This document shows, piece after piece, positions 6,164 through 46,870 of a stretch of DNA of 64,000 nt. This DNA comes from a virus. The notes beneath the pieces are model-generated. The model was not told where the DNA came from and did no database searches. It saw only the letters and a program-made list of their open reading frames with translations. The stretch lies in UHGV virus genome UHGV-0287696, one strand, 5' to 3'. A program made the position numbers and the translations under genes. Position 1 is the first letter of the stretch. Each line of letters opens with the position of its first letter.

Positions 6164-7726
6164 TCAAAAGAGTTCGTCACCCATGCCGCCGGTAAATACG
6201 TTAATCGACGAGGCTGTTACAGTTTCTTCTTTATCACAATCCCATGGCAAAATGCCAACATCACGGAAAGGTATTACAGTATAATGATAAGCTTCTTTGG
6301 TATCAATAATTGTACGGTGTTTACCGCGTTGTACTTCTAAATAGCTGTGTCCGCTGACGACACGTTTGTTAAAATACATCTCACCGTCAGCTTCGTTGTC
6401 TAAGCTAGAGCAGTTGTCGTAAAGACCACGACCAGGTAAGCTCTTACAGAAACTTGCTGGGTCGAGTGCTTTTAATTTTTTGCCTTCTGGTGAGATTTGG
6501 TGTGGTGCTAAGAGGAAACCACGATTACGTACCACTTGGATGTTTCGCGCGATACGATAAATTTCTTTAATGTCACTACCCGCAATACCGTTACCGTGCC
6601 CTGCTTTGCTGATAGTACCGAAATAGTCTCCGCGTATTCCAGCTACATGATAACCTCGACGTTTTAAATCTAAAATCAAATCATTCAAATAGTGAATTTT
6701 AAAATCGGAGTTTGTGTGTTTTTGGAAAATATACTCCCAACCGTTTGCCCGCATTTTACTACAGAGGTAATCTGACATTTGTGCATTGTGTAGCGCTTTT
6801 TCTTCGTCAGTTGCCGTTTCAGGTGCAACCATTACCGGAGCTGTACCTTCAAAGTGTCCGTAAAGTGCTTGATACGCGTAAGCCAAGTTAACATCTAATT
6901 CGTTTTCTAAACTTAAATCCAGAATAACCGGTTGTAAGTCACCTTTAACATTTGCCATCACCTTTTCTGGGGTGTTGAATACAGGAATGCTAATAGAGAG
7001 CAATAAACTGAATAATGACTTACAGTTAAAAGGAAGAGCAGGCATTAGCCAGAGTTCTTCGGTGATCCCTTTGTTACAACCGAGCATTTGGTTAATTGCT
7101 TTCCAGCCCGTACGTAACCCGTTCCCTGCTGCTTTCTTACTGATAGAGTCGAATACATGTACGAAGGGTGCTTTATTGTCAGTAATCAATTCCCCTACCA
7201 GAGAAGGAATCTTATTATGAGAGCGTTCACTGAACGTGGATAAGGTATCCTTAAGGTCGTTGAGCGCCGTTTGTAAATCAACACGCGTTTCAGTGCCGTT
7301 CAGTGCGCCTAACGTACGACCCAATTTTTGTTTCAGTTGTACGCCTTGAATAGCTTGACGTAACTGAAAGTAGTATTGTGCTACTTGGCGATTAAGATGC
7401 TCGATGCGTGCTTCTGGTTCTTCTGGAATATCATCTTCCAGGAATTTGGTAATCGTATCGTATAGAGGACGTATTTGCGTAGTGGCCAGTTTCAAACGTT
7501 TCATGACGTTTGTGTGGTCGTAAGGCATACCGCCGTCTATGATGGATGTGATGATATCCTTGATTTCGACGAGGGCGGCACGTTCGTCACCTTCTTCTGC
7601 GTAATCAGGAAGCTTAGCCTCTAACAGCACTTTTCTTATGATGTCGTGGTCCTTTTCAGGATCGGTCAGAAGACTTTCAGCGTATAATGTGGCTAAGGCG
7701 GTTATCAACATCATTTTGTTATTCAT
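6164..7726 (-). CDS. hypothetical protein (520 aa)
   Basis: Long - strand ORF; RBS AAGGA upstream of ATG at 7726; no motif recognised. Confidence 0.6.
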   Translation of the reverse strand: MNNKMMLITALATLYAESLLTDPEKDHDIIRKVLLEAKLPDYAEEGDERAALVEIKDIITSIIDGGMPYDHTNVMKRLKLATTQIRPLYDTITKFLEDDIPEEPEARIEHLNRQVAQYYFQLRQAIQGVQLKQKLGRTLGALNGTETRVDLQTALNDLKDTLSTFSERSHNKIPSLVGELITDNKAPFVHVFDSISKKAAGNGLRTGWKAINQMLGCNKGITEELWLMPALPFNCKSLFSLLLSISIPVFNTPEKVMANVKGDLQPVILDLSLENELDVNLAYAYQALYGHFEGTAPVMVAPETATDEEKALHNAQMSDYLCSKMRANGWEYIFQKHTNSDFKIHYLNDLILDLKRRGYHVAGIRGDYFGTISKAGHGNGIAGSDIKEIYRIARNIQVVRNRGFLLAPHQISPEGKKLKALDPASFCKSLPGRGLYDNCSSLDNEADGEMYFNKRVVSGHSYLEVQRGKHRTIIDTKEAYHYTVIPFRDVGILPWDCDKEETVTASSINVFTGGMGDELF

Positions 7727-8276: not shown

Positions 8277-10571
8277 ATGAAAGATACCCGAATCTCTAAT
8301 CTGGAGAAACTCGTACAAGCTGGTAACTCGCTGGTACAAAGCGTCATTAGTAACAACAGTGCTGGCGAAATGTGGAACACCATCGTTGCTGGTGAGTCTG
8401 TACGTAGCAACACGAAAGTTTTTGGTACCCTGCGTGACGATGCTGCACAGCACTACGCAAACGCGTTTGCTGGCGGTAAGAAAATGTCCCACGCTGCGGA
8501 AGTTGCTTCTGCAATGATTCTGGGTGCTGCTGGCCACGGTATGGACCTGCAAGAAAAAGTAGCGCAAGAATACGCTAAGCCAGAATTCCATAGCCGTTTT
8601 AACCTGGACGTTGCGATTCCTGGTTCCCAAGCTGGTAACGGCGACTGGGGCAAAGAGCGTATGGTTGTTGCTCAGGAATACTACACCAACAAAGATTACG
8701 ACAAAAACCTGGGTCTGACCTGGACGCTGAACGTACGTGCTCTGGAAACTCAGTCTCGTTTCGCTGAGACTCTGTTCCCGACCATCACCGTTGACACCAA
8801 CGATGTTGGTATTACCGTACGTACCAAAGTGACCACCGTTTCTCGTGGTGTCATGCACGCGTTACTGACCAAAGACGTTGTTGAAGATCATCGTCGTAAC
8901 CTGCACGAAGCGCTGACCGACCACACCGTTCTCCAGGACGAAGCGATCAACATCGTTCCTTACGTAATGGAAACCGGTGAAAACGCTGAATACTTCGTAA
9001 GCGAAGAACTGGTACCGAACGAATCTGTTCGTCTGGGCCGCGTACCTCCGTACCCGACTAACTACCTGAGCTTTGCTAAAGACACTCTGAACCTGTTCCA
9101 GCTGTCTGCGCATCCGGGTATCGTTCAGGAAGGTTACGACGAAACTGATGAAATCGCACCGGGTTGTGCTCTGGGCAGCCTGCTGATTTCCGTACGTAAA
9201 CCGACCGAAGAAGCGAAAGCAGGTAAATTCATCAAACTGCACGTTCGTGACATGCAGTTCGCAACCTTCCAGCGTCCTGCTGAAGGTGATGGCCGTGAGC
9301 TGGTACTGCAATTCCGTCGTACTGCGTTCTCTCTGAATGCGAAAACCACCGACTGGAAAGGCGAAGCTATTCCGGCACTGAAATCACTGGAACAGAACTC
9401 CTACACCCTGCGTTATGTGATCACCATCAACATGTCTCTGTTCACTACCGGTCAGTTCGGTGGTAAAGTTGACATCGCTGGTCACAAACTGGAAATCGAA
9501 GGTCTGTACGACGCTACTGGTAACAAAGTTGATACCAAATCTGGTACCGGCAAAGTTATCCTGGACGGTCTGAAACTTGAACTGATGGGCTGGCGCTTCG
9601 ATGGTACTCGTACCAACGAAAACCGTCGTACCCAGGGTCTGCTGCTTGACCCAATCTGGGAACAAGAAAACTACAAACTGCAATACGGTTCTCCGATCCT
9701 GACCAAGTCTCCGGTTGGCGTTGAATACGACGATACCGAACGTCTGGACGACCTGATTTCCGCAGTTAACATCCGTAACGAACAGCTGGCTATCACTCAG
9801 ACGCTGTCTTACACCGAAGCGGTACGTAACGCTGCTGCAAGCATGATCACTCCGTGGGACAAACCGGCCATTCGTGGTCTGGGCCGTCACTGGGTTGCTC
9901 CGTGGTTCAAAGAGTCTGACTACAACGTTGATGAAGTTGTACAGTCCCTGGATACCAAAGATGCACTGATCAACGCTCGTCAGGGCCTGGTACAGCGTAT
10001 CGGTAATCAGGTAACTCAGGCTATCCAGGAATCTCGCTTCATTCCTGCGCTGCGTCTGTACACTGCCGATCCGGACATTCTGCCGAAAGTTGTTATTGCA
10101 ACTGACGAACCGACTGCATCTATGCTGCTGCTGGTACAGGGCGACCAACGTCTGCTGGGCGATCGCTACGAATACGAAGTGATCACCACCAACGATGACC
10201 GCTGGCGTATCTACAACGCAGCTGACGGTTCCTGGACTCGTCGTCTGCAATGGTTCCTGAAAGTTCCGACTGCGGACGATGGTTCCTACAACGTGCTGAA
10301 CTGGGGTAACCACTTCTGGTCTCCGATCATGGTTACCAACATCAACATTCAGCGTAACGGTTCTACCTCTAAAGAGCTGGCCGTACAGCCGCGTAACGCG
10401 CACATCTGTCACTGCCCGATCACCGGTCTGATCTGGGTTAAAGGCATCACCAAACTGGTTGAAGAAAAACTGGCTTACAATGTTTCTGTTGAACAGAACG
10501 GTCAGAAACAAACCGAAGGTGGTGTAGCAGGTAACGTTGCTGGCGAAGGCAAAGCTGCTGCTGGTAAGTAA
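8277..10571 (+). CDS. major virion structural protein, most likely major capsid protein (tail sheath not excluded)
   Basis: 764-aa ORF with strongly optimised codons (ctg, cgt, ggt, aaa), strong downstream terminator; size matches the ~750-aa capsid proteins of phiKZ-like phages; no search run. Confidence 0.5.
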   Translation: MKDTRISNLEKLVQAGNSLVQSVISNNSAGEMWNTIVAGESVRSNTKVFGTLRDDAAQHYANAFAGGKKMSHAAEVASAMILGAAGHGMDLQEKVAQEYAKPEFHSRFNLDVAIPGSQAGNGDWGKERMVVAQEYYTNKDYDKNLGLTWTLNVRALETQSRFAETLFPTITVDTNDVGITVRTKVTTVSRGVMHALLTKDVVEDHRRNLHEALTDHTVLQDEAINIVPYVMETGENAEYFVSEELVPNESVRLGRVPPYPTNYLSFAKDTLNLFQLSAHPGIVQEGYDETDEIAPGCALGSLLISVRKPTEEAKAGKFIKLHVRDMQFATFQRPAEGDGRELVLQFRRTAFSLNAKTTDWKGEAIPALKSLEQNSYTLRYVITINMSLFTTGQFGGKVDIAGHKLEIEGLYDATGNKVDTKSGTGKVILDGLKLELMGWRFDGTRTNENRRTQGLLLDPIWEQENYKLQYGSPILTKSPVGVEYDDTERLDDLISAVNIRNEQLAITQTLSYTEAVRNAAASMITPWDKPAIRGLGRHWVAPWFKESDYNVDEVVQSLDTKDALINARQGLVQRIGNQVTQAIQESRFIPALRLYTADPDILPKVVIATDEPTASMLLLVQGDQRLLGDRYEYEVITTNDDRWRIYNAADGSWTRRLQWFLKVPTADDGSYNVLNWGNHFWSPIMVTNINIQRNGSTSKELAVQPRNAHICHCPITGLIWVKGITKLVEEKLAYNVSVEQNGQKQTEGGVAGNVAGEGKAAAGK

Positions 10572-35486: not shown

Positions 35487-35525
35487 CCCTCTCTCCGTTT
35501 GGAGAGAGGGAGTATTTATTTTTAC
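35487..35525 (+). terminator. intrinsic terminator
   Basis: ccctctctcc-gttt-ggagagaggg followed by T-run; near-identical hairpin at 36551. Confidence 0.7.
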
Positions 35526-35579: not shown

Positions 35580-35915
35580 ATGTGGTTAAGTGCGATTCAC
35601 CGTGATTTACCAAAACAAGAAATGGTATTTACCGTTGGGGAACCAGCAACTGTAGTAGGTGTTGCTAAGTTCGAAAGGGTGGAAGAAGGTCAATTCGTCG
35701 TAGTAGACGACAACGAGAACGAATTCATGTTGTTCCACCCTGAGGTCGATACCTCTGAAATCTGTGAGGGTTCTCTTTTGTTGTCCTGGCAAGATCCTGA
35801 AACCGGTGCATGGAAGTGGCGTGTCGCTAAACCGACGCTTGAAACAGAATCTGCATACGTGACTGAACACGTATACGTGTTTGGGGAAACTTATGTCGAG
35901 CCAAAACCACACTAA
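35580..35915 (+). CDS. hypothetical protein
   Basis: 111-aa ORF with GAGGA RBS. Confidence 0.45.
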   Translation: MWLSAIHRDLPKQEMVFTVGEPATVVGVAKFERVEEGQFVVVDDNENEFMLFHPEVDTSEICEGSLLLSWQDPETGAWKWRVAKPTLETESAYVTEHVYVFGETYVEPKPH

Positions 35916-36201
35916 TACCGATGAAACGAATTTACAGCGCTTGCAACGGGCACTAACTGCACCGCTAGGCGGTGAGATTCACGAACGTTGGGTAATTGCG
36001 AGGGTGGTAGAAATTGACTATTCTCAGGATCAGTTACTGTTAAACAACTGCTCGACGAACGTGTCTTTCACGTTACCGCGCGCTGTATTCCGTCTTACGC
36101 CCAACGTTGATGAAATACTGACTATTGACAGGAAACTTCTGTCGATAGAACTACAGCATTTCCCGCTACCTGGTAAGTCGGTTAACATCGCGCTATACTG
36201 A
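35893..36201 (+). CDS. hypothetical protein
   Basis: ATG at 35893 (track start 35881 is TTG); overlaps the upstream gene end. Confidence 0.4.
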   Translation: MSSQNHTNTDETNLQRLQRALTAPLGGEIHERWVIARVVEIDYSQDQLLLNNCSTNVSFTLPRAVFRLTPNVDEILTIDRKLLSIELQHFPLPGKSVNIALY

Positions 36202-36218
36202 TAATTGTCTAAAAAATT

Positions 36219-36257
36219 TAAGATATATTTCATCTATGTGAGAATTCTCACTTAACT
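36219..36257 (+). promoter_or_regulatory. conserved early-type promoter motif (variant) with downstream palindrome GTGAGAATTCTCAC
   Basis: TTAAGATATATTTCATCTATGTGAGAATTCTCACTTAAC; copy 3, upstream of ATG 36275. Confidence 0.45.
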
Positions 36258-36274
36258 AAATGGAGTAATCTAAA

Positions 36275-36544
36275 ATGGGTAAGATTTATATTGTTGAAAA
36301 ACGTGCAGGTAATGTTCTTTCCTATTACGAAGAAGGTAAACCTGAAAAGGTTAAAACACTCAAACTCGACGGCTTCAATGTGAAGAGTTTACGTAAGGGT
36401 GTGAAGATTACCTTTAAAGGTCTGATTCGCGCAGGTAACTTGCAGATTGTTAAGGACGACGGCACGATGGTTGCGTTAGCACCGGCCAGTGCTGCGAAAA
36501 CGACAGCAGGTTGTGGCTGCTACGGTAGCAGTCGTAAGATTTAA
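36275..36544 (+). CDS. hypothetical early protein (89 aa)
   Basis: Strong RBS context; follows the promoter motif; followed by terminator. Confidence 0.5.
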   Translation: MGKIYIVEKRAGNVLSYYEEGKPEKVKTLKLDGFNVKSLRKGVKITFKGLIRAGNLQIVKDDGTMVALAPASAAKTTAGCGCYGSSRKI

Positions 36545-36550
36545 GCAGTG

Positions 36551-36590
36551 CCCCTCTCTCCGTCTGGAGAGAGGGTACTTTTATTTTTCT
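36551..36590 (+). terminator. intrinsic terminator
   Basis: cccctctctcc-gtct-ggagagaggg followed by tacttttatttttctt. Confidence 0.7.
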
Positions 36591-36602: not shown

Positions 36603-37091
36603 ATGACAACGGTATTAGTAACAAAGGATTACATTTTAGCTGACCGACTTGTGGATTATGCTGGTACGGTTAAAGAATTGCCCAAACTGCATAAACACAA
36701 AAACAAGTTTGTTTTCTACACGGGTGAACGTGTACTGGACACCGAGTTTTGGAAAATGTCGATTACCGCTGCTATAGAAAAATATTTAGACGAGGATAAA
36801 CGTAAGAAAGTTGAGCCCCTGTTTGCAGATCTTATCGAAAAAGAGCGAATATACGATCAAATCGTCATTTTTACGGCTAGAGAAACACATTGGTTGACGT
36901 TAGTAGCAGATAAGTTTAAAACGTTTGTAATAAATAAAAATGCGGTTTGGACAACGGGTTCTGGTGGCGGCTTTGCGCGGGCTGCTTGGGCAACTGGAAT
37001 ATCAGAAAAGAAAATTATGCCATTGGTAGGTTCTATTGATCCATCTAGCTCGACCACCTATGACTTATTTTACAGGAAGCACTTACGATGA
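36603..37091 (+). CDS. HslV/proteasome-like Ntn-hydrolase (putative)
   Basis: ATG 36603 (RBS GAGGTG); predicted N-terminus M-TTVLVTKDYILADRLV places Thr directly after Met as in HslV (TTIVSVRR...); GSGG motif (WTTGSGGGFARAAWATG) where HslV has GSGGxYAxAAARAL. Confidence 0.35.
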   Translation: MTTVLVTKDYILADRLVDYAGTVKELPKLHKHKNKFVFYTGERVLDTEFWKMSITAAIEKYLDEDKRKKVEPLFADLIEKERIYDQIVIFTARETHWLTLVADKFKTFVINKNAVWTTGSGGGFARAAWATGISEKKIMPLVGSIDPSSSTTYDLFYRKHLR

Positions 37092-37609
37092 AGATAAACG
37101 CTGTCTTAATTGGCGATGAAATATTCGTTAATACAAAAACACAATATCTGTATTACGAAGGTATTACTGTAATAGACGATTATTACGGTAAGTACGGTTG
37201 GTGGATTCCGTCCCCTAACTCCTTACGATTAGAAGAAGCATTAACTGCTGAAGAGAACAAACTAGAAGGAGAGTGGACTTATATTAGTTCTATAATTGAT
37301 GTTAGTGGACGTATTAAAGACGTCTACTGGGCTAAAGAGTCAGGGTGGCGTGTTACGCTACACCAACCAACACCAGTAAGATTGTTGTACGACCATTCGG
37401 ATAGTTCAGAGTTAGCGTTTACCATTGAGACGCTCTCGGTACGTAAGGATCTAGACAACGTAGGGAAAGGGAAGTGGTCTATTGAGCGCATTGAGGAGAT
37501 TCTCAGCCACTTTAAAGCTAACAACCAATTTAAACGTTGGTGCACATTACCTGAGTTAGTAGAGGAGTTGAAAAAGCGGGATTGCAAACCGCTACCTTTT
37601 AACCCGTAG
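37088..37609 (+). CDS. hypothetical protein
   Basis: 173-aa ORF overlapping the upstream stop (ATGA). Confidence 0.5.
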   Translation: MKINAVLIGDEIFVNTKTQYLYYEGITVIDDYYGKYGWWIPSPNSLRLEEALTAEENKLEGEWTYISSIIDVSGRIKDVYWAKESGWRVTLHQPTPVRLLYDHSDSSELAFTIETLSVRKDLDNVGKGKWSIERIEEILSHFKANNQFKRWCTLPELVEELKKRDCKPLPFNP

Positions 37610-42271: not shown

Positions 42272-45200
42272 ATGGCTAAAGCGGTAAAGAAAATTCGTTT
42301 ACACGATTTACGTCCATACACCGGGGATATCGGTGAAGGCGTTTTACTTTTTTCGAAAGACGAAAGGGATTATCAGTTACCTGTCCGCGAGATTGTTGCG
42401 GATATTGACACCGTCAGAAACGCGGTTGCCGACGCACAAACGGCGGCGGCCAAATCGCAACAGTCTGCAACAGAAGCCACACAAGCAAAAGACTTAGCAG
42501 AAACCGCGAAGCAACAAACTGACACGTTAGCTTCCACCGTTAGCGAGCAAGCGGGAACCGTTGCCACTAAAACTGCTGAGGTTAGCAAAAAACACGCTGA
42601 AGTTTTAGCCGCGAAAACTGCCGTAGATACTGTATTACAGTCGGTAAATGAGAAAGCTCAAGCTGTCGCTACAAGCGAACAATCGGTGACGGCTGCAGCG
42701 GCTGATGTAACTAAGAAAGCAGAAACGGTTACGCAACAGGCCGGACAAGTTCAACAGACGGCTACCGGTGTCGAGAATACTGCGGCTTCAGTTGAGGCCA
42801 GTAAGGGCGCAGTGGAGAAGATTGCTGCACAGGTCGCGAAAGATAAAGAAAGTTCAGAAGGCGCAGCAACACGTTCGGAGTCAGCTGCCTTACGTGCGGA
42901 GAAAATCGCTGCGCAGGGCTTAATCGACGCTAGTACAACCGGTAAAGGTATCGTTAAACTTAACGATACACTGACTAGCGAATCCGTGACTGAGGCTGCC
43001 ACACCGTCCACGGTTAAACAGCTGAATGACGAATTACAGTTAAAAGCCAATAAACATTCGCCGAATTTTACGGGTAAACCGTCATCCCCAACACCCCCGA
43101 AAGATTCAAACGACACGAGTATTTCCACAACGGCCTGGGTGCGTGACGCGATTGCGGAACTGGTTGGTTCTTCACCCGAGACGTTAAATACCTTAGCGGA
43201 ATTAGCTGAGGCGTTAGGTAATGACCCTAACTTCGCAACAACGATTACTGGGGAACTTGCGCAGAAACAACCCCTCAGTCCGTTGCTCACCGCCATTGCC
43301 GCAGTCACCACAGCGGCAAACAAACTCATGTATTTCACTGGCAGTAATAAAGTCGGATTAACGGATTTTACAGAAACGGCTAGATCCTTGTTAGCGAAAG
43401 GGTCAACTGCGGATATCATCAATTTCTTGGGATTAAAAGCCACTGTAGATAAAGCGAATAGCGCGTTACAGAAAAACTCTAACGGCGCTGATATCCCAGA
43501 TAAAGAAATGTTTGCTCGCAATATCGGTCTGTCTCCTGACACCTATCTGCGTTTCCGTGGCGAAATGCCAGTAGATGCCGATATTAACACATTTGCTCCT
43601 GATGCCAATTACACAGGAACGTGGGCTAAGTCGACGTCAACCAATGCGTCGATGGCAAAACATTTCCCAGAAGACGGTGCAGTCGGTTATCTGGAAGTGT
43701 ATAAAGCCGGTAATTACAGTGGCGCACAGCGTTTTACCTGCCGTAATGGTAACGTGTACAACCGTATGCTGAGTGGCGCGTGGAATGGTGCCAATGGACC
43801 CTGGTCACCGTGGAGAATGGTAACTACTGGTGTACGTCCGTTATCTACCTCTATAGACTTGAACAGTTTGGGTGGCGCTGAGCATATGGGTAACTGGCGA
43901 AACTCGTCCAGTTCGCTGGCTGTTTTTAGCAGACATTACCCTGAAGAAGGTGGTGGCGCGCAAGGCGTACTAGAAGTAATGGAAGGTGGTCTTTTCGGAC
44001 GGTTGCAACGATACACCACACGTCGTGGTACAATGTATGTCCGTGGTTTGACCGCAACGTGGGATTCATCAAACCCGCAATGGGAAGATTGGATTCAGGT
44101 TGGTTATCAGACTGACGGTGCTTTCTTTAAAGCCAATTTTGACGATCTCGTTAAACCGGGACGTTTCAGTGTCACTGGTGAAGCAACTAATGGTCCACTT
44201 ACCGGTTCTTCTGGTGAAACCATATTAGGCGTTTGTGAAGTTACCTTACGCTTAGACGGTACAGGGGTCGAACAGAATTATACTACATACGGTACGGGTG
44301 TAGAAACTAAAGGTCGTAAATTCCAACGTATCCGTACGGGTAACGCTTGGAGCGATTGGCGCGAGATTTTCACATCATATTCGCTTCCGTTAGTATTAGG
44401 TATAGGCGGTGAACGCGCGAATGTTGATCCTTTAGACTGGCAAACCTATGACTTTAAACCGGGTGAGTTAATCTGTACACCACTTAACACCATGAAAAAC
44501 ATTCCTGCGGGAATGGATTGGGGTGTTATTGACGGTAACTTAGTTAGCATTCTGGTTGGTCCATCAGATGGCGCATCCTCAGGCCGGAGTATGTTGGTTT
44601 GGCGTAGTACGGTGTCTACTGCCAACTATCGATTCTTTGCAGTACGTATCGCCGGTGAGAAAGGTAGTCGTACGATTACACCACGACAGATGCCTGTATT
44701 GAATGCAGCACACACCTGGGCAGAAAAACAGACCTTTGCAAAAGGGTTAGCAGGTGAGTTAACAGGCAATGCTTCAACCGCAACGAAATTAAAGACCGCA
44801 CGTAGAATTGGTGGAGTCGCTTTCGACGGCAGTGGTGATATTAACCTCCCAGGTGTTAACCAACAGGGTAATCAAAACACCACGGGTAATGCCGGTACAG
44901 CCACTAAACTTCAAACCGCCAGAAATATTAACGGTGTGAGGTTCGATGGTTCTGCTGACATCAATATCAACACCCTGGTAGGTCGTGGTCGGGTTACTGC
45001 ACTAACCGGTTCAAACAAAGGTACGCCTGGTATTCAGATGTACGAAGTTTACAATAACGGTTATCCGACCGCTTATGGTAACTTGCTGCATTTGGGCGGT
45101 TCTACTGCATTAGGTGAAGGTGAACTGTTAATCGGTTGGTCGGGCACGAGTGGTGCGCACGCACCCGTTTATATTCGTAGTCGACGTGATACAGCGGATG

Positions 45201-46870
45201 CGCCGTGGTCAGATTGGGCACAAGTTTATACTGCCCGTGATAGTATTCCTGGTGTAAATACCACCGGTAATCAAGATACTACTGGTAACGCTGCTACCGC
45301 GACGAAACTGAAAACTGCTCGCAGAATCGGGGGCGTTACCTTTGACGGTACTGGGGATATCAATTTACCGGGGGTTAACCAGCAAGGTAACCAGAATACG
45401 ACAGGTAATGCAGCAACCGCTACTAAGTTACAAACAGCACGTAAGATCGGCGGTGTTAACTTTGACGGTTCGCAAGACATTAGTCTGCCCGGTGTGAACC
45501 AAACCGGTAACCAATCGACTACGGGGAATGCTGCGACAGCGACTAAGCTCCAGACTGCGCGAAATATAGGTGGCGTAGCTTTTGATGGTACTAAAGACAT
45601 CAACTTACCTGGCGTAAACCAAACGGGTAATCAGTCGACCACCGGAAACGCGGCCACTGCAACAAAATTGCAGACAGCGCGTACCATTAACGGTATCGCA
45701 TTTGACGGCACTAAAAACATCGAAATAACGGCTGAAAGTTTAAATCTTGGTCAAACTGTAGAATTGGCCGGTGGGTCATTGCAGAAGAAACAGAACGGTG
45801 CCGATATTCCAGATAAGAGAAAATTCTTACGAAATGTTGGTGCCGCGAACACAACAACTGTGTCTTTTAATGGTGGTGCCGGATGGTTCAAACTGGCAAC
45901 TGTAACGATGCCGCAAGCCAGTTCCGTGGTTTACATAAGCCTGATTGGTGGTGCAGGGTTTAACGTTGGTTCCCCGCATCAAGCAGGTATCTCTGAGCTG
46001 GTTCTGCGTGCAGGAAATGGGAATCCAAAAGGTATTACTGGTGCGTTATGGCGACTGACTTCAGTCGGCTTCGCTAATTTTGCATGGGTGAATACATCTG
46101 GTGACACTTACGATATTTATGTTGAAATAGGTAATTACGCCACCGGTGTTACTATTCAGTGGGATTACACTAGTAATGCCAACGTAACGATTCATACATC
46201 GCCAAGTTATACGGCTAATAAACCCGCAGGACTAACAGACGGTACCGTCTATCTGATTTACAGCACACACAACAAGCCTAACGCTGGTGACATCGGTGCG
46301 TTACCGTCAGGGGGCGGTACTATAGGTGGCGATTTAACCGTTAACGGTAAATTGGTCACTAAGTACCCTGATTTTCGAATCGCTTACGGCAACTACGGCT
46401 TTATGTTACGTAACGATGGTGCCAATACCTATTTCTTAGTAACCGACGCCGGTCAAGCTGCAACGGGTTCCTGGAACGGTCTACGTCCGTTGTATTTTAA
46501 TAATGCTAACGGTCAAGTAACCTTTGGTCATAACGTTACTGGCAGCGGTAACGGTTCGTTTAACGACGTACAGATTCGTTCTGACCGTCGTAACAAACGT
46601 AATCTGGTGAAACTAGATAAAGCTTTGGATCGGTTAGAGTTACTAACCGGTTATTTGTACGAAATTCAGCATCCTGACGACGGCTGGCAGACCTCTGTAG
46701 GTTTAATTGCCCAAGACGCATTAGAAGCGTTACCTGAACTTGTGTCTGAGGACGACGATGCCATTTCAGGCGAAAAACGTTTACGTCTAAACTACAATGG
46801 CGTTATTGCGCTGTTAGTAGAGGGGATGAAATCCCTTCGCCAAGAGCTTAAAGAGCTTAAGGAGAAATAA
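42272..46870 (+). CDS. tail fibre protein with Ala-rich N-terminal region, ~40-aa tandem repeats and C-terminal S74 intramolecular chaperone domain
   Basis: 1532 aa; repeats NxTGNAATATKLQTARxIGGVxFDGxxDINLPGV about seven times; C-terminus SDRRNKRNLVKLDKALDRLELLTGYLYE...GLIAQDALEALPELV is the classic S74 auto-cleaving chaperone signature. Confidence 0.8.
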   Translation: MAKAVKKIRLHDLRPYTGDIGEGVLLFSKDERDYQLPVREIVADIDTVRNAVADAQTAAAKSQQSATEATQAKDLAETAKQQTDTLASTVSEQAGTVATKTAEVSKKHAEVLAAKTAVDTVLQSVNEKAQAVATSEQSVTAAAADVTKKAETVTQQAGQVQQTATGVENTAASVEASKGAVEKIAAQVAKDKESSEGAATRSESAALRAEKIAAQGLIDASTTGKGIVKLNDTLTSESVTEAATPSTVKQLNDELQLKANKHSPNFTGKPSSPTPPKDSNDTSISTTAWVRDAIAELVGSSPETLNTLAELAEALGNDPNFATTITGELAQKQPLSPLLTAIAAVTTAANKLMYFTGSNKVGLTDFTETARSLLAKGSTADIINFLGLKATVDKANSALQKNSNGADIPDKEMFARNIGLSPDTYLRFRGEMPVDADINTFAPDANYTGTWAKSTSTNASMAKHFPEDGAVGYLEVYKAGNYSGAQRFTCRNGNVYNRMLSGAWNGANGPWSPWRMVTTGVRPLSTSIDLNSLGGAEHMGNWRNSSSSLAVFSRHYPEEGGGAQGVLEVMEGGLFGRLQRYTTRRGTMYVRGLTATWDSSNPQWEDWIQVGYQTDGAFFKANFDDLVKPGRFSVTGEATNGPLTGSSGETILGVCEVTLRLDGTGVEQNYTTYGTGVETKGRKFQRIRTGNAWSDWREIFTSYSLPLVLGIGGERANVDPLDWQTYDFKPGELICTPLNTMKNIPAGMDWGVIDGNLVSILVGPSDGASSGRSMLVWRSTVSTANYRFFAVRIAGEKGSRTITPRQMPVLNAAHTWAEKQTFAKGLAGELTGNASTATKLKTARRIGGVAFDGSGDINLPGVNQQGNQNTTGNAGTATKLQTARNINGVRFDGSADININTLVGRGRVTALTGSNKGTPGIQMYEVYNNGYPTAYGNLLHLGGSTALGEGELLIGWSGTSGAHAPVYIRSRRDTADAPWSDWAQVYTARDSIPGVNTTGNQDTTGNAATATKLKTARRIGGVTFDGTGDINLPGVNQQGNQNTTGNAATATKLQTARKIGGVNFDGSQDISLPGVNQTGNQSTTGNAATATKLQTARNIGGVAFDGTKDINLPGVNQTGNQSTTGNAATATKLQTARTINGIAFDGTKNIEITAESLNLGQTVELAGGSLQKKQNGADIPDKRKFLRNVGAANTTTVSFNGGAGWFKLATVTMPQASSVVYISLIGGAGFNVGSPHQAGISELVLRAGNGNPKGITGALWRLTSVGFANFAWVNTSGDTYDIYVEIGNYATGVTIQWDYTSNANVTIHTSPSYTANKPAGLTDGTVYLIYSTHNKPNAGDIGALPSGGGTIGGDLTVNGKLVTKYPDFRIAYGNYGFMLRNDGANTYFLVTDAGQAATGSWNGLRPLYFNNANGQVTFGHNVTGSGNGSFNDVQIRSDRRNKRNLVKLDKALDRLELLTGYLYEIQHPDDGWQTSVGLIAQDALEALPELVSEDDDAISGEKRLRLNYNGVIALLVEGMKSLRQELKELKEK
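44761..44990 (+). repeat. tandem coding repeats (block 1) within tail fibre gene
   Basis: Two ~120-bp units encoding GNASTATKLKTARRIGGVAFDG.. and GNAGTATKLQTARNINGVRFDG.. Confidence 0.6.
45250..45720 (+). repeat. tandem coding repeats (block 2, about four units of ~120 bp) within tail fibre gene
   Basis: Repeated ggtaa(c/t)ca..ac(c/t)acgggtaatgc.gc.ac.gc.ac.aa..t.ca.ac.gc encoding GNQxTTGNAATATKLQTAR. Confidence 0.65.

Follow-up and report, generated by a model that had tools for sequence, protein, structure and literature searches.

A probable HslV-type N-terminal-threonine peptidase encoded by a phiKZ-like jumbo phage

The 64,000-nucleotide stretch of the virus genome UHGV-0287696 analysed here (the window) belongs to a phiKZ-like jumbo phage of ~222 kb. 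Among small non-structural genes, between the head and tail-fibre genes, it carries a gene whose product is supported as an HslV/proteasome-like N-terminal nucleophile (Ntn) hydrolase, an identification reached because a profile match to solved structures, the register of a profile-profile alignment and a confident structure model agree, as the original prediction from the sequence had proposed. We consider it likely that this phage product is catalytically competent, as an N-terminal-threonine peptidase subunit of the HslV type. It adds a new, so far unlabelled member to a known and annotated phage family of putative peptidases.

36603..37091, plus strand: HslV-like (proteasome-like Ntn-hydrolase) peptidase gene, 162 aa; assigned from sequence, PHROG, profile, structure model and conservation.

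Searching Pfam with the HslV-like protein and 12 homologues gave no match, NCBIfam returned noise with nothing relevant, and phmmer against PDB gave one spurious methyltransferase match and nothing relevant. As a single sequence, the protein matched the PHROG family phrog_1040 ('peptidase HslV family') at E=1.1e-5 over residues 1-159, and tblastn retrieved full-length homologues with 25-30% identity in 19 records from jumbo phages of Erwinia, Cronobacter and Salmonella (Machinavirus, Derbicusvirus). Several of these are already labelled 'peptidase HslV family' or 'HslV-like protease', and the proteins of the window's own lineage are labelled merely 'hypothetical protein'. The jumbo-phage members of PHROG 1040, which include Erwinia EarlPhillipIV gp123, Cronobacter CR5_121, Erwinia pEa_SNUABM_43 gp125 and Salmonella pSal-SNUABM-04 ORF116, are true full-length homologues sharing the M-T-T start of the window protein and the gene order GNAT, Dam, ..., small protein, HslV-like, ~175-aa protein.

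When 1.84 billion representatives were searched exhaustively with a profile, 67 family clusters were recovered, nearly all aligned from residue 1; 53 sequences taken from them form the alignment used for the family profile, the structure model and the column conservation. Against PDB, this profile matched T. brucei HslV (4hnz) at E=7.9e-10, with 13 more HslV sequences next and proteasome beta subunits after them; neither BPH nor Anbu was among the sequence-profile matches. With hhalign, the profile aligned to E. coli HslV (reference sequence from NC_000913.3) at E=7e-6, with M-T-T, Asp14/Asp17, Lys28/Lys33 and GSGG/GSGG in register. The original prediction had leaned on two short motifs, a Thr directly after the initiator Met and an HslV-like G-S-G motif, and had proposed a Pfam or profile search as a check. 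Although Pfam itself is silent, the 53-member profile finds HslV and then proteasome beta subunits, the G-S-G motif is present, and the strength of the match to solved HslV, together with the motif columns being the most conserved, indicates that the two motifs are not a chance resemblance.

A first AF2 model, built on a shallow 20-sequence alignment, was unusable, with a predicted local distance difference test score (pLDDT) of 41, and was superseded by the 53-sequence run, which reached a pLDDT of 94.2 and a predicted template modelling score of 0.88. In this model the protein adopts the proteasome-type alpha-beta-beta-alpha Ntn fold, with the flanking helices H1-H4 all present (H1 predicted at residues 48-62, H2 at 67-80) and a short pore loop. 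The top Foldseek matches in PDB were exclusively HslV and proteasome beta subunits, and a BFVD search found at least 40 viral proteins sharing the fold, mostly 'uncharacterized'. The original prediction was to be abandoned if there was no HslV or proteasome match and the fold was not of the Ntn type; both the profile and the predicted fold turned out to be HslV-type.

Bacterial HslV (ClpQ, T1B; E. coli, T. maritima 1m4y) is thus the closest solved relative of the phage protein, by sequence profile and by fold. The two have in common the Ntn alpha-beta-beta-alpha fold with H1-H4, an M-T-T start without a propeptide, a short pore loop, a similar length (175 mature residues in bacterial HslV, 161 in the phage protein) and, in register, Thr1, Asp17, Lys33 and the GSGG-x-x-A-x-AA motif. 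Their identity is just ~15-18%.

The best-conserved columns of the 53-member alignment are those of the motif residues: the Thr after Met, the Asp, the Lys and G-S/T-G. Residues are numbered with Met as 1.

Thr2, predicted nucleophile after Met removal: Thr in 43 and Ser in 9 of 53 sequences (Thr/Ser 52/53).
Asp14, equivalent of HslV Asp17: conserved in 53/53.
Lys28, equivalent of HslV Lys33: conserved in 50/53.
Gly119 and Gly121, HslV GSG motif (Ser124/125): 53/53 each.
Ser/Thr120, middle of the Gly119-Ser120-Gly121 motif: 51/53.
Asp154: conserved in 49/53.

As read from the alignment, this conservation pattern matches that predicted for an active Thr peptidase. The ratio of nonsynonymous to synonymous substitution rates (dN/dS) is 0.13 relative to the Enterobacter orthologue; the gene is under purifying selection, which rules out that the peptidase is a remnant. 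Methionine aminopeptidase accepts Thr at P1', and the Met before Thr is removed in the making of E. coli HslV too, so that Met removal would also be expected for the phage product.

The ORF (open reading frame) runs from an ATG at 36603 to a TGA stop at 37089-37091, and its product reads MTTVLVTKDYILADRLV ... WTTGSGGGFARAAWATG ... YRKHLR. A Shine-Dalgarno sequence, GAGGTG, provides a GAGG ribosome-binding site (RBS) 6 nt 5' of the ATG, and the coordinates, RBS-supported start and motifs of the original prediction all held. The program-made ORF list runs the frame further upstream, to a GTG at 36489. A longer ORF with a propeptide starting there was rejected: the added stretch overlaps the preceding gene and a hairpin, the equivalent ATG-ACx-ACx start in other lineages has an in-frame stop 3-19 codons ahead of it, and the close homologues (>40) are all called at 162 aa. 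For these reasons, ATG 36603 is taken as the true start, without a propeptide.

36552..36590, plus strand: terminator-like hairpin CCCTCTCTCC-GTCT-GGAGAGAGGG with a T-run, then the GAGG RBS, directly 5' of the HslV-like gene.

The stem of this hairpin is GC-rich and 10 bp long, and the order of T-run, RBS and ATG-ACx-ACx is kept in all lineages checked. The same perfect 10-bp-stem hairpin (CCCTCTCTCC-GTYT-GGAGAGAGGG) occurs twice, at 35487-35510 and 36552-36575, each copy followed by a T-run, and the pair brackets a three-gene unit at 35580-36544. With 0 matches in 100 shuffles, no copy would be expected by chance, and the two are probably reused intrinsic terminators.

No HslU-like gene was found in the 64-kb window. 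The same holds for a complete relative, NZ_CP134650.1 (222,441 bp, circular, an Enterobacter ludwigii 'plasmid'), which is 84% identical to the window over most of its length and was searched by tblastn and with a profile built from five HslU-like phage proteins; its Walker-A ORFs of at least 150 aa are dTMP-kinase-like and SMC/Rad50-like, with no others. Of the four IMG/VR contigs belonging to the window's lineage, none was among the best 80 of 289 HslU-like IMG/VR matches, which is supportive of absence and not decisive. The absence of an adjacent HslU, already part of the original prediction, therefore stands for the window's lineage, even though it fails for some relatives (below), and as far as the complete relative shows, the peptidase is an orphan with regard to phage-encoded unfoldases. 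Whereas bacterial HslV is encoded in an hslVU operon, the phage gene lies in a phage-specific three-gene module.

Under the reading preferred here, host methionine aminopeptidase would remove Met1 and expose Thr1 as the nucleophile, the subunits would form stacked rings around the active sites in the manner of HslV, and the complex may degrade unfolded proteins or peptides during infection. Since the lineage has no HslU of its own, substrate delivery would be independent of a phage-encoded HslU; the likeliest regulators or adaptors would be the products of the two neighbouring genes, of ~90 and ~173 aa, with host HslU as the second candidate.

Several points weigh against this reading. The protein does not reach the curated thresholds of Pfam PF00227 (Proteasome) or of the NCBIfam HslV models, and PF00227 is touched by one distant family member alone, at E=0.007, under the cut-off. 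That this exact phage lacks HslU is deduced from a genome only 84% identical to it. The neighbouring proteins have no recognisable domains, and the role given to them comes from synteny alone. Finally, the literature we found on phage HslV-like proteins consists of annotation-level mentions and one bioinformatic classification, with no functional or biochemical work.

The two neighbours are encoded on either side of the peptidase gene.

36275..36544, plus strand: 89-aa protein, phrog_12339, upstream module neighbour; assigned from PHROG and synteny.
37088..37609, plus strand: 173-aa protein, phrog_25529, downstream module partner; its ATG overlaps the stop of the HslV-like gene (ATGA).

The triad of a small protein, the HslV-like protein and a translationally coupled protein of ~173 aa is kept in every context examined, including eight divergent ones. 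Its upstream gene usually encodes ~90-105 aa, with the exception of Machinavirus, where an internal duplication brings it to ~195-200 aa, and is separated from the HslV-like gene by a spacer of ~60 nt holding a T-run and an RBS. The downstream gene encodes ~170-183 aa and overlaps or abuts the stop codon of the HslV-like gene. In the metagenomic phage L015, the triad is found in the major-capsid block and not in the GNAT-Dam block, and this different location indicates that the triad travels together. The downstream partner can be shown to be homologous across the Machina-type, Derbicus-type, L014, L015 and L105 contexts, which was not possible for the two most distant ones, L106 and L107. Its profile gave no PDB or Pfam match. 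The idea that the 173-aa partner is an inactive, alpha-like paralogue of the peptidase was considered as well, and is unsupported by sequence (hhalign probability 0.2%).

It is conceivable, although we hold it to be rather unlikely, that the peptidase and the ~90-aa and ~173-aa proteins make up a self-contained, HslU-independent proteolytic module that is specific to phiKZ-like phages and mobile as a unit, in which the two partners would represent a new kind of gate or adaptor. If this were true, a possible job of such a module would be the destruction of host defence or stress proteins.

Alternatively, the phage peptidase might dock on host HslU or another host AAA+ unfoldase, the recruitment of which the original prediction had also suggested, and steer ATP-dependent degradation towards targets that benefit the phage. 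The lineage has no unfoldase of its own, the Walker-A ORFs of the complete relative being of other kinds, and the closest solved relative is HslV. Moreover, the predicted pore loop has the short form known from HslU-gated HslV, while the loop of the unfoldase-free BPH is long and acidic (PMC8665760). The enterobacterial hosts possess hslVU. On the other hand, the low identity to E. coli HslV, ~17%, speaks against this, and the position of HslV Lys28, which we take to be where the HslU C terminus binds (Sousa et al. 2000), is not conserved in the family alignment. Such a hijack of a host unfoldase is regarded as doubtful.

A non-proteolytic role seems very unlikely, whether as a decoy that titrates host HslU or as a connectase-like ligase/transpeptidase or other amidase on the same fold. 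In the catalogue of proteasome-like homologues by Fuchs et al. 2021, which includes the phage-borne PPH, AAH and CPH, non-proteases are indeed represented (PMC8665760). A decoy, however, would have no need to keep Asp, Lys and G-S/T-G invariant and a Thr/Ser nucleophile in place over 53 divergent members, and this strict conservation disfavours the decoy option that the original prediction had offered. Connectase is a monomeric ligase that lacks H1 and H2 (PMC8665760), both of which are predicted in the window protein, and in structural matching it scores lower than HslV and the catalytic beta subunits. Among the other homologues, PPH is likewise a phage-borne group-I protein with a conserved catalytic triad; with ~140 aa and no H2 (PMC8665760), it is set apart by description from the window protein, which has 162 aa and a predicted H2. 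BPH forms heptameric rings and has the long acidic pore loop mentioned above, in contrast to the short, HslV-like loop predicted here, and Anbu, an unfoldase-independent bacterial homologue like BPH, forms split rings.

Machinavirus and Derbicusvirus relatives, and the PHROG 1040 jumbo phages named above, differ from the window's lineage in carrying an HslU-like gene ~2.5 kb downstream of the HslV-like gene. It encodes a phrog_4339 AAA+ protein of 578-684 aa, with a Walker A near residue 55 and the remaining AAA_2 module after an insertion of ~350 residues, a split layout like that of HslU. It was located in four of the genome contexts compared.

L001:7596-9650, HslU-like AAA+ gene (phrog_4339).
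L002:7965-9701, HslU-like AAA+ gene (phrog_4339).
L010:8808-10871, HslU-like AAA+ gene (phrog_4339).
L011:8965-10698, HslU-like AAA+ gene (phrog_4339).

The phrog_4339 gene of phage pSal-SNUABM-04 bears the label 'putative DnaA'; in the paper describing this phage, two HslV genes are reported and HslU is stated to be absent (PMC7823757). Five further divergent family contexts have no HslU-like gene within 8-10 kb, and in Erwinia phage RAY the HslU-like protein is located within the phage nucleus, its function being called unclear (bioRxiv 10.1101/2023.02.24.529968). That some phages have the HslU-like gene close by may not be a sign of obligatory pairing. These relatives offer a model for a dedicated phage HslU-like partner in canonical HslVU style, either lost in the window's lineage, leaving the peptidase as a remnant, or encoded in an unseen part of the genome, yet this is most improbable given the complete 222-kb relative without such a gene, the lack of the lineage's IMG/VR contigs among the best 80 of 289 matches (consistent with absence, not proof of it), the five contexts without one, the RAY localisation and, for the remnant version, the purifying selection.

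Returning to the HslV-type peptidase as such, a second paralogue of this type is encoded in the Enterobacter genome (NZ_CP134650.1 88426-88926; L006:38426-38926), in a part that the window does not match. Its sequence includes MTTIVFDGKTLACDGQ... and GSG is present. Its jumbo-phage family is more widespread, comprises 67 phage records, from SPN3US, phiEaH2, EL and others, is often encoded as gene 1 and is labelled 'peptidase HslV family'. Proteasome-like peptidases are thus widespread in large phages, considering the 67 clusters, the at least 40 structural relatives and the 67 records of the second paralogue family. Knowledge of the fold or of the family is unchanged by this finding, and the fold will be no surprise to specialists. 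What the window's lineage provides is a clean natural case of a peptidase without a phage unfoldase, in cultivable Salmonella and Enterobacter isolates, and it is therefore convenient for asking whether the peptidase acts alone, acts with its two neighbours or borrows host HslU.

The assignment of the window to a phiKZ-like jumbo phage follows from its gene content, which includes a phiKZ-type major capsid protein gene at 8277-10571, a divergent DnaB helicase gene at 6164-7726, phiKZ internal head proteins and further phiKZ-like PHROGs. Megablast of the window against the GenBank phage collection found no close DNA relative. Close protein homologues of the HslV-like product are located on contigs of 221-226 kb, several of them from Salmonella enterica isolate assemblies. 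The record of the relative, NZ_CP134650.1 (L005-L009), presents it as a circular non-mobilizable 'plasmid' from an isolate of Enterobacter ludwigii, and related contigs of ~224 kb are present in several Salmonella enterica isolate assemblies, which suggests that the jumbo phage is in a carrier or pseudolysogenic state within cultured isolates.

Further along the window, a tail-fibre protein of 1532 aa (42272-46870) contains ~5 tandem repeats of ~40 aa (TATKLxTARxIGGVxFDGxxDIxLPGVNQxGNQxTTGNA). Its orthologue in L003 has T4 gp34-like and Peptidase_S74 domains, and gp38-like adhesin genes come after it; in comparison with the Enterobacter genome, conservation of the window is lowest in the fibre region. 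Just past the part that matches the window, that genome has a pair of adjacent radical SAM genes on its minus strand (L009:9652-11893; NZ_CP134650.1 209652-211893).
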